A stretch of 60,000 nt of DNA from Lytechinus pictus (GCF_037042905.1 NC_087245.1:17362001-17422000); one strand, 5' to 3'; shown: positions 28,901 to 31,878, counted from the first letter of the stretch. Notes: generated by a model not told the origin, from the letters alone. A program made the numbers and translations.

Positions 28901-31878
28901 GTCGGGATGGTCAAAGAAGGTAAGGCTTACAGTACTTATCAGTGATCTATTCGTATCAGGGCATCGTTACACTTTAGAAATTACATAATGAATGATCAAC
29001 AGAGGACTACGTGTTACCACACAAAATAATGCACAGAATGATTGCATGAGCTTTATTACATGATACAGAAAATGATCACTTTGCCTCTCTTTCTGGCTTT
29101 ATTTTAGTTGTTCGAACCGATAACCTTCGAGGGCGACGAGGTAGACTGCCAACCAAACAGCGGAACTCTCAGGATCTCCCTCCCCCATCCCCTCCTGTTA
29201 GTCTTATCACAGCCCTGGTACGAGCACACGTTGATGCTTCACCAGCTAAAGCAAATCGGGATTACAGCCAGGTAACTAAACATGACCTTTACCCTTTATT
29301 AACCACTAAAGCAAGGGGACAAGGCTATCATTGGCTATAACTTAGCGGTGAAGTTTAATCAAAATCACTGACTTCCAAAAAAATATATATAATTCATGCT
29401 AGAAGATTTGATGAAGAAAAGTTATGATGCATAGTACTGATCGCATGCGGCAAGAGGAACTTTTAATATAGCTATGAATATGGTCTACAGCGGAAGCGAA
29501 AGATTGATGAAATTGATGGCTGGAAACGAGGTGAACGTATCCACCCAGTCCTGGTGATATTGAACAATGATTCTAGTATGACGTCACATCGAATAGAAAG
29601 TAGGACAGGAAGGGAAAGGAAATTACATACCGAGCAGAGATGGGCCAGGTTTGAAACGATGGTTCTCTACAAAATGCTCCCGTCAGGCATGCTCGACACG
29701 GCTTGATAAAGTGATGGATGTGATACCTCTGGATGACGTCATTTAGCCATTATGACGTCTAACACGTTCTGAAAAAGAGAAGGGAGAACGAAAATAAACA
29801 TAGCTGCCCCGATTTCCCTCAGCAAACCAGGATAGCCTCATATGACGTCACAATGCAATCAATTTCGCTAGTGGGGCTCACGGGGAAATAGGCAGTCATA
29901 TAAAAGATTAATAATAGATGGGGGAAAAGGGTTTTACTAGCATATATGGGTCGGCCTTTCAGATCAATGGTTTGCGTGTAATCACTTGGGACATGACACT
30001 ATATTAACCACATCATTCTCCCCGTTTTTTCTCTCTCTCGGCCCATCTCCATCTTCATCTCATTTCTTCTATAATCTATATGACTTGCGGTTGGATTGAC
30101 TTCACAGTTTCGGCTGCCTGGTGACGTCATTTCACCACCACCAGAGAACGAGCAGCTGCAAATCTTCTATGACAACTTTTGTTCTTCTATTGACGTCATC
30201 CGGTCCTGGGCGGAGCGTATCCCTGGATTTAGCGATCTCTGCCGGGAAGATCAAGATTTGCTTTTCCAATCTTCTTGCCTTGAGCTCTTCGTTCTCAAGA
30301 TGGCATACAGGTAACATTATTCGGTTCTAATTACTTATCATAAATACCTCCATGTGTGAGAAACTCAAGCTCATTATGATAGCCAGTGACTATATAACCT
30401 GTTTAAATGCAAAAATCCGGGGGGAATGGTATTCTTTAACTATTTATTTGATGTATGACATATTCTTCTGAAATCATTCTGTACTTTATACAAGTTGTTT
30501 ATTCATCTACATAACATATTCCCTCAGTCACAACGCTTTACAAAGTTCAATAAGCATAGATGATAATGAACACAATTTATTAGAATAATTTTAGGCTCTT
30601 GATAGAGAACACACGCTTCAATGAAGCACCCCCCCCCCCCATTTTGTCATTCGTGTGGTAGTCTGGTACAGTCTGAAGTAATGATTGTGTAATGTTTATA
30701 TATTCGTAATATCAGGGAATGAAAGCGAGTCACTCCATTGTGTGGAACATTTGCGTTTGACTGAAGCCTAGTGAAATCAAACTCGATACAGTCATCAGAT
30801 GTGCGAGATGCACTGAAACTAACGATTTTATAAATACTTCAGTCCCCGTTTCTATGCCGATAGTAATATATATTTGTTTTTGTACAATATTTCTCACAGA
30901 GTGAACCCGGACGATCCATATGTAGTGTTTTGCAATGGAAACGTCCTCCACAATCAGCAATGTGAACGAGGCTTTGGAGAATGGTTAGATGATATACGGA
31001 CCTTCTCGAAAGTACTCTCATCTCTTGAAATCGACATCTCTTCGTTCGCATGTCTGTCATCTCTTGTTCTTATTACCGGTAAGTGATGAACATTACCATG
31101 ATTGCGCTGTATATTTATCATAACGCCACATTCATTTGCAAATAGATTTACGTTAACTATCAAAATCAATATAAAACTTGACAATAAGATTATATTCTTT
31201 CCAGCCTGTTGATAAAACTCTTGTTGAAAAAAGAGTGCTGCGAAACCTGCCGACTTGACTGGGTGTTATACTGCTCTTGGTACAACCCTGACAGGTGCTT
31301 CCAAAATACTTGCAGTGTTTAAATAATGGGTTCACGTGTTCAGAACTAACCCGGGTGTTTTTGCATGTAGTCATATAGTCTTGTCTGCCAGTTTACTTTC
31401 AACTTTCCTGATGTAGTATTATTATCCATTTTTTGTAACATAATTATCATATCTTATTGCTAAGTACTCGAATTGACTTCTTTATGAGGAAAATGGTAAT
31501 CACCGTCTTTTATCAGAAGGGAAACAGTTCATTGTGAATTAAGCAGAAAGCTTAAGGCTGTAATTTCAATATTTACATCTCTTTCTCACTTTATTATTCT
31601 CTATTTCATGAATACCTACAGAGAGACACGGATTAAAGGAACCTGAGAAAGTGAGTCAGCTTCAAAACAGAATCATCGGCTGTCTCAACGATCACGTGAC
31701 TTACAACACGAGTGCGCAGACGCGAGCCAATTTCCTTTCTCGGATGCTGATGCAGCTCCCTGAACTTCGGGTTTTGAGCAAGAAAGGACGCCAGAGGTTA
31801 TGCGCACTCAAAGTAGAAGGAGCCGCCCCTGTTCCTGGCACCATCGAAAAAACTTATGAGCCTAACTTGCCTTATTAA
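25883..31878 (+). CDS. NR4A: NR4A-family orphan nuclear receptor (Nur77/Nurr1/HR38 ortholog); spliced CDS join(25883-25979,26856-27970,28790-28919,29108-29271,30108-30310,30900-31078,31622-31878), about 714 aa
   Basis: All introns are GT-AG and phases (1,0,1,0,2,1) give one open frame. [67 protein letters not shown]4A A-box RGRRGRLP; hinge [59 protein letters not shown], ending LPY*. Confidence 0.97.
26856..27970 (+). CDS. NR4A: NR4A large exon: Q/H/P/S-rich A/B domain plus first zinc finger
   Basis: Acceptor ttctttttattaaag|GC; open frame continuous with ORF 27065-28018; donor TTTAAG|gtaaga after GFFK. Confidence 0.95.
28790..28919 (+). CDS. NR4A: NR4A exon, second zinc finger ([11 protein letters not shown]...GMVKE)
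   Basis: tttacag|AGG ... GAAG|gtaagg; canonical NR4A DBD sequence. Confidence 0.97.
29108..29271 (+). CDS. NR4A: NR4A exon, T/A-box and hinge ([15 protein letters not shown]...DYSQ)
   Basis: ttttag|TT ... CAG|gtaact; RGRRGRLP A-box. Confidence 0.97.
29570..30200. promoter_or_regulatory. Intronic/exonic CRE cluster
   Basis: Perfect TGACGTCA at 29579, 29734, 29843, 30122 and 30191, plus TGACGTCT at 29753. Confidence 0.6.
30108..30310 (+). CDS. NR4A: NR4A exon, LBD helices 3-5
   Basis: ttcacag|TTT ... TACAG|gtaaca; [19 protein letters not shown]. Confidence 0.96.
30900..31078 (+). CDS. NR4A: NR4A exon, middle of LBD
   Basis: ctcacag|A ... ACCG|gtaagt; [31 protein letters not shown]. Confidence 0.96.
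31622..31878 (+). CDS. NR4A: NR4A last coding exon, LBD helices 9-12
   Basis: ctacag|[13 protein letters not shown]...LPELR...NLPY TAA. Confidence 0.96.

Follow-up and report, generated by a model that had tools for sequence, protein, structure and literature searches.

Five CRE octamers in an intron and the adjoining LBD exon of the Lytechinus pictus NR4A gene: a candidate intragenic enhancer

The NR4A gene of the sea urchin Lytechinus pictus contains five perfect copies of the CRE octamer TGACGTCA within 612 bp, three of them in an intron and two in the coding exon that follows, where they are read as LBD codons. The octamer is present in excess over the locus, its copies are clustered at this point, and its non-coding copies show a preference in their flanking bases. 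We tentatively interpret the five-CRE cluster as a candidate intragenic enhancer of the ATF/CREB (bZIP) type, exonic sites included, in an immediate-early gene, an interpretation that appears plausible from the sequence but falls somewhat short of probable.

The NR4A gene and its CRE sites

The stretch of DNA analysed (hereafter the window) is 60,000 nt in length and carries the NR4A gene on the plus strand. The gene has 7 coding exons with GT-AG introns, and its spliced product of 714 aa is identical at all 714 residues to P0001, a Lytechinus pictus record with the source name NR4A2-like. Pfam domains zf-C4 (PF00105) and Hormone_recep (PF00104) were identified in the product, which thus has the C4 zinc-finger DBD and the nuclear-receptor LBD of the NR4A family; the protein is nearest to NR4A/HR38, and its protein matches are named NR4A or HR38. 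The segment at 20,840–21,391 is a probable NR4A promoter with a non-coding first exon, as judged from a MEF2-like site at 20,840, two CREs at 20,889 and 20,922 (33 bp apart), TGATGTCA at 21,012, and an AP-1 site at 21,384 directly before the GTAAG donor that follows position 21,391.

All five perfect CREs of the original prediction, and the near-CRE TGACGTCT between the second and third of them, were found at the predicted positions (Table 1). The two exonic copies are formed, also as predicted, by GGT GAC GTC ATT and ATT GAC GTC ATC; each requires 3 synonymous choices, the final A being fixed by Ile, and the codons of CRE 4 encode the loop preceding a conserved LBD helix. A CArG-like site had been proposed at about 29,940, and GCATATATGG is indeed located there, but such sites are no more frequent than expected by chance, a one-mismatch CArG box lying within 150 bp of 24% of window positions. 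The TATA-, MEF2- and CArG-like calls at 29,899, 29,908, and 29,940 were made with the usual consensus patterns of these sites. The intervals between the successive cluster sites, including the near-CRE, are 155, 19, 90, 279, and 69 bp, and no common period (helical phasing) was found among them.

Table 1. Coordinates of the NR4A gene, the CREs, and neighbouring sites in the window
Feature	Position	Strand	Remarks
Probable NR4A promoter and non-coding first exon	20840..21391	+	from sequence alone
Further CRE	25740..25747	.	143 bp upstream of NR4A ATG; octamer scan
NR4A coding region	25883..31878	+	714/714 to P0001; Pfam zf-C4, Hormone_recep
NR4A exons 1–4	25883–25979, 26856–27970, 28790–28919, 29108–29271	+	
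Further intronic CRE	28329..28336	.	between two zinc-finger exons
NR4A intron with three non-coding CREs	29272..30107	+	836 bp, 41% GC
CRE 1, intronic, TGACGTCA	29579..29586	.	matches DRTGACGTCAYH
CRE 2, intronic	29734..29741	.	matches DRTGACGTCAYH
Near-CRE, 7/8, TGACGTCT	29753..29760	+	19 bp past CRE 2
CRE 3, intronic	29843..29850	.	matches DRTGACGTCAYH
TATA-like, TATAAAAG	29899..29906	+	56 bp past CRE 3; not above chance
MEF2-like site, weak	29908..29917	+	17 such in window; not above chance
CArG-like site, one mismatch	29940..29949	+	65 such in window; not above chance
NR4A coding exon 5 of 7 (LBD start)	30108..30310	+	AG/GT ends; PF00104
CRE 4, exonic, G507-D508-V509-I510	30122..30129	.	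matches DRTGACGTCAYH
CRE 5, exonic, I530-D531-V532-I533	30191..30198	.	no match to 10- or 12-base flanked motif
NR4A exons 5–7	30108–30310, 30900–31078, 31622–31878	+	

Two further features of the gene were noted. A perfect minus-strand match to what is presumably the NBRE (the NR4A monomer site) is located at 29,283–29,290, 12 bp inside the CRE-bearing intron; the window contains 9 such copies, and NR4A autoregulation through the intronic one is possible. An open frame at 25,780–25,900, which lies upstream of the annotated ATG and extends over it in a different frame from that of the annotated protein, reads ...CVASKYGSP..., which we take to resemble the vertebrate NR4A N-terminus.

CRE excess across the locus

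In total, 15 copies of TGACGTCA are present in the window, compared with 0.70 expected from dinucleotide shuffles, and none of 100 shuffles reached 15. The octamer ranks first among the palindromic 8-mers of the window by observed/expected ratio, and its 12 single-mismatch classes occur 0–7 times each. The locus as a whole is CRE-rich, which had been missed in the original prediction. The copies outside the cluster begin at 79, 5,114, 7,487, 9,515, 13,538, 20,889, 20,922, 25,740, 28,329, and 45,381. Fourteen of the 15 are located upstream of or inside NR4A, and the last 28 kb contain a single copy; the control palindrome TACATGTA is split 5 to 7 over the same two parts of the window. In non-coding DNA, the observed/expected ratio of the CRE is 20.9 overall, with 36 in 1–32 kb versus 3.5 in 32–60 kb. 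Lower CpG in parts of the downstream half (observed/expected of 0.31–0.48 in 4 of 14 bins) may account for some of the 14-to-1 split, yet the segment at 32–40 kb, where this ratio is 0.75–1.1, contains no CRE. A purine 5' flank was found in 22 of the 26 half-sites of the 13 non-coding copies (p=2.7e-4).

The occurrence of five CREs within 612 bp has a chance probability of p=1.6e-4 given 15 copies in 60 kb and of p=1e-3 given 14 copies in 32 kb, whereas the clustering of the three intronic CREs alone gives p=0.017–0.046; all of these estimates rest on the composition and CRE density of the window itself. As in other homotypic CRE/ATF clusters, the sites are denser than the local background and are not copies of a repeat. 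A repeat or transposon origin of the cluster was considered and rejected: it lies outside all repeat families of at least 30 bp among those shown, and the identity shared around its CREs is local, extending over 12–16 bp about the motif.

Several other elements were identified in the window. A broken LINE-type retrotransposon at 40,944–44,065 encodes an endonuclease (PF03372) and a reverse transcriptase (PF00078) in separate frames. Nested MITE-type inverted repeats are present at 44,718–45,585, with a related copy at 22,887–23,104, and the lone downstream CRE (45,381) sits in one of the inverted-repeat arms. Two arrays with 42-bp and 16-bp units, in inverted orientation and about 1.2 kb apart, occupy 51,780–53,646 and are likely transposon ends; related copies occur at 37,580–37,762. 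In the segment at 57,924–58,951, a 205-bp unit repeated in tandem (3.9 copies) precedes a partial copy in inverted orientation, and the minus strand of 59,141–59,476 contains an exon of a gene for a small GTPase of the Ras/Rab family (PF00071).

The exonic pair and the competing readings of the cluster

Protein comparisons were made with 123 NR4A proteins, namely 120 of 518 protein matches and three cluster members. CRE-compatible xDVI residues are present at the CRE 5 position in 76 of these proteins (71 of the 118 from outside the sea urchins), including only 1 of 5 from sea stars and sea cucumbers, and the IDVI residues at this position are an ancient protein motif. The GDVI residues of CRE 4 were found in 5 of 5 urchin proteins, the loop being unchanged between Lytechinus, Strongylocentrotus, and Diadema, and compatible residues occur in only 2 of the 118 non-urchin proteins (PDVS, in two sea stars). 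The whole of exon 5 differs by only 1–4 residues among urchins, so the conservation of GDVI says nothing specific.

More distant orthologs were obtained from a metagenome scan, which yielded 8 NR4A loci of 55–75% protein identity, none of them urchin-like; these represent 7 distinct exons, L004 and L005 being identical there. The residues at the IDVI position permit a CRE in 5 of the 7 and a CRE is present in one (L006:1402-1409), which is unremarkable at 3–4% per site. The CRE 4 residues are absent from all 8 loci, and no full CRE was found at any of the 8 in the 450–900 bp upstream of the exon. As far as these sequences indicate, the cluster motif is not deeply conserved, and the distant orthologs other than L006 do not share it in the same codons. 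The original prediction was to be abandoned if third positions varied freely in orthologs and the region showed neither open chromatin nor reporter activity; the codons do vary in the distant orthologs, which goes half of the way, at great distance only. No urchin NR4A ortholog DNA was found in the viral contigs scanned, and two matches of the NR4A query to prokaryote genomes were short and were rejected as spurious.

The cAMP/CREB enhancer that had been predicted can be retained as an enhancer-like cluster, given how closely the sites are grouped, the preferred flank, and the resemblance to a motif of urchin open chromatin. The designation 'cAMP/CREB', however, is too specific, because the nearest matches of that motif are Atf1, FOSL2::JUNB, and ATF3 (PMC12616046). 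The motif, RTKACGTMAY or DRTGACGTCAYH, was found de novo in open chromatin of S. purpuratus larvae and is given in at least three of the four sheets of Table S5 of that source, with 401–639 sites per condition. If the cluster functions in this manner, bZIP dimers (CREB1/ATF1, or ATF2/ATF3/Jun types) would bind the intronic CRE core, and signalling through cAMP, calcium or stress kinases would recruit co-activators to the cluster, which may then contact the CRE-bearing promoter near 20.9 kb, about 8.5 kb upstream, and boost stimulus-induced transcription from the probable promoter of NR4A itself. The exonic CREs would most likely have been co-opted: the protein had already fixed the xDVI residues before these copies arose, and three synonymous choices were then enough for each octamer. 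Whatever pressure led CREs to accumulate over the locus is likely to have acted also on the two exonic positions beside the intronic core.

A rather unlikely alternative is a genuine enhancer made up of the three intronic CREs, to which the exonic pair adds nothing, having arisen by coincidence from normal codon usage at xDVI residues that are ancestral. The frequency of xDVI in non-urchin NR4A proteins means that the residues need no regulatory reason; in addition, the codons at CRE 5 vary in the distant orthologs, and the copy at 30,191 is without the preferred flank. When the NR4A CDS was shuffled synonymously (n=20000), at least two CREs arose in 57 shuffles (p=0.003 when the CRE is the sole hypothesis) and one CRE in 1797. 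Of the 99 8-mers that occur at least twice in the CDS, 23 are equally improbable by this shuffling (p<=0.004), and the CRE ranks 21st among them. What gives the exonic pair a special status is the prior from the 13 non-coding copies, which single out the CRE independently and thereby keep the look-elsewhere penalty small; for the two specific codon sites, the probability that both are CREs under neutral codon use is only p=0.0006–0.0013, which speaks against coincidence. The observed/expected ratio of the pair, about 21, is comparable to that in non-coding DNA, and a third CRE-compatible codon site in the CDS (HDVS) has no CRE. If compatible codon sites were enriched 20-fold, two of three would be CREs in 36% of cases, and the pair is therefore consistent with the excess seen over the locus. 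A stronger proposal, that two selected CREs were written into the LBD codons, where they form the 3' half of one enhancer lying across the intron–exon boundary, with synonymous positions frozen across echinoids and the GDVI loop kept partly for the DNA motif, would appear clearly unlikely.

It is distinctly improbable that there is no dedicated element at all, i.e. that TGACGTCA is generally over-represented in CpG-retaining urchin DNA and the cluster is the tail of this background. The five further CREs spread over 1–20.7 kb and the modest clustering of the intronic trio alone would agree with such a background, as would the published urchin motif list, which also includes simple repeats and TACATGTA, a sequence enriched in the window too. 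The five CREs, however, remain an improbable grouping at the window's own density, the sole CRE of the last 28 kb sits in an inverted-repeat element in spite of the CpG content at 32–40 kb, and the NR4A family is a known CREB target. The internal promoter for an LBD-only transcript that had been proposed alongside the enhancer became unlikely on closer analysis. It would consist of the CREs at 29,734 and 29,843 with TATAAAAG at 29,899, and its short product would be either a non-coding RNA or a truncated protein with the LBD only; the TATA consensus lies 165 and 56 bp downstream of the two CREs, respectively, which agrees with the published definition of CRE/TATA, in which the TATA box is no more than 300 bp away (PMC5740062). 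TATAWAWR, however, is no more frequent here than expected by chance, as 19% of window positions have one in the 300 bp that follow them, and the in-frame stretch ahead of exon 5 is without an ATG, leaving no start codon for an intact LBD: the first in-frame Met is exon residue 65, which would give a product of 148 aa with the first 64 exon residues missing. The P0001 cluster has 5 members with names (586–730 aa), and no LBD-only protein is among them, although such a cluster may miss short forms. We therefore regard this promoter as most improbable.

Should the candidate bZIP enhancer prove real, it would represent a compact stimulus-responsive element in an echinoderm and would suggest that the regulation of NR4A as an immediate-early gene through CREs extends to sea urchins; an 800-bp fragment could then be used in urchin larvae to report activity or injury. 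Were the six synonymous positions to prove frozen, the exonic pair would offer an unusually clean example of dual coding by a single motif.

Comparison with known systems

No description of this CRE cluster was found in a search of mainly open-access literature. The accessible parts of PMC3249382, PMC11240583, PMC13317027, PMC9435058, PMC10638671, and PMC7827873 contain nothing on this locus; there is no NR4A entry in the accessible supplementary file of PMC9435058, and LOC581160 has 0 matches in the 5 files of PMC12616046 that were accessible. The 12-mer DRTGACGTCAYH of S. purpuratus is matched by 4 of the 5 cluster CREs and by 8 of the 15 CREs of the window, the copy at 30,191 being the cluster member that does not match. 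In S. purpuratus, this motif is a genome-wide one, with about 400–640 sites per condition, and no tie to NR4A is seen in the accessible parts of the source. The motif list of PMC12616046 includes simple repeats; its Methods name promoters as the control and the command for sheet 1 prints no control file, and part of the published motif enrichment may be genome composition.

In mouse Arc, the SARE has CREB, MEF2, and SRF sites close together (PMC6140108), and a similar arrangement is seen in the urchin gene, where the CRE at 29,843, the MEF2-like site (+65), and the CArG-like site (+97) fall within about 100 bp. A SARE-type module was nevertheless rejected: the matches are weak, and the probability that any of the 15 CREs has both sites within 150 bp is P=0.22.

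Exonic enhancers (cEEs/eExons; PMC13216554, PMC4745165) likewise have transcription factor motifs in an internal coding exon that can be altered synonymously, and 13,481 candidates have been reported in human, with similar numbers in three other species (PMC13216554). The cEEs are defined by ChIP occupancy of at least 10 factors peaking inside the exon, and clusters that spill over from an intron are excluded (PMC13216554), whereas the urchin cluster is known from motifs alone and has an intronic core (three CREs and the near-site versus two exonic CREs). Its membership among exonic enhancers is not established.

Immediate-early behaviour has been described for hr38 in the cricket (PMC6140108) and in insects (PMC6514070), and NR4A2 was up (log2 2.91), together with EGR1 and AP-1, in the freshly dissected (injured) nerve cord of a sea cucumber (PMC9657328). 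Mouse Nr4a1 and Nr4a2 each have six promoter CRE sites and show CREB/CRTC1-dependent induction (PMC5740062, PMC12471074). The urchin gene resembles them in gene family, in motif, in the presence of several copies per gene, and in carrying two CREs at its probable promoter. The mammalian sites are promoter-proximal (-3 kb to +300 bp) and mostly half-sites, full CREs numbering one in Nr4a2 and none in Nr4a1 in the accessible parts of these sources, whereas all five CREs of the urchin cluster are full palindromes, situated about 8.5 kb into the gene, and two of the five overlap codons. Because the regulation of NR4A through CREs is an established concept, as is the exonic enhancer, the cluster would be a new example of known principles rather than a new principle.
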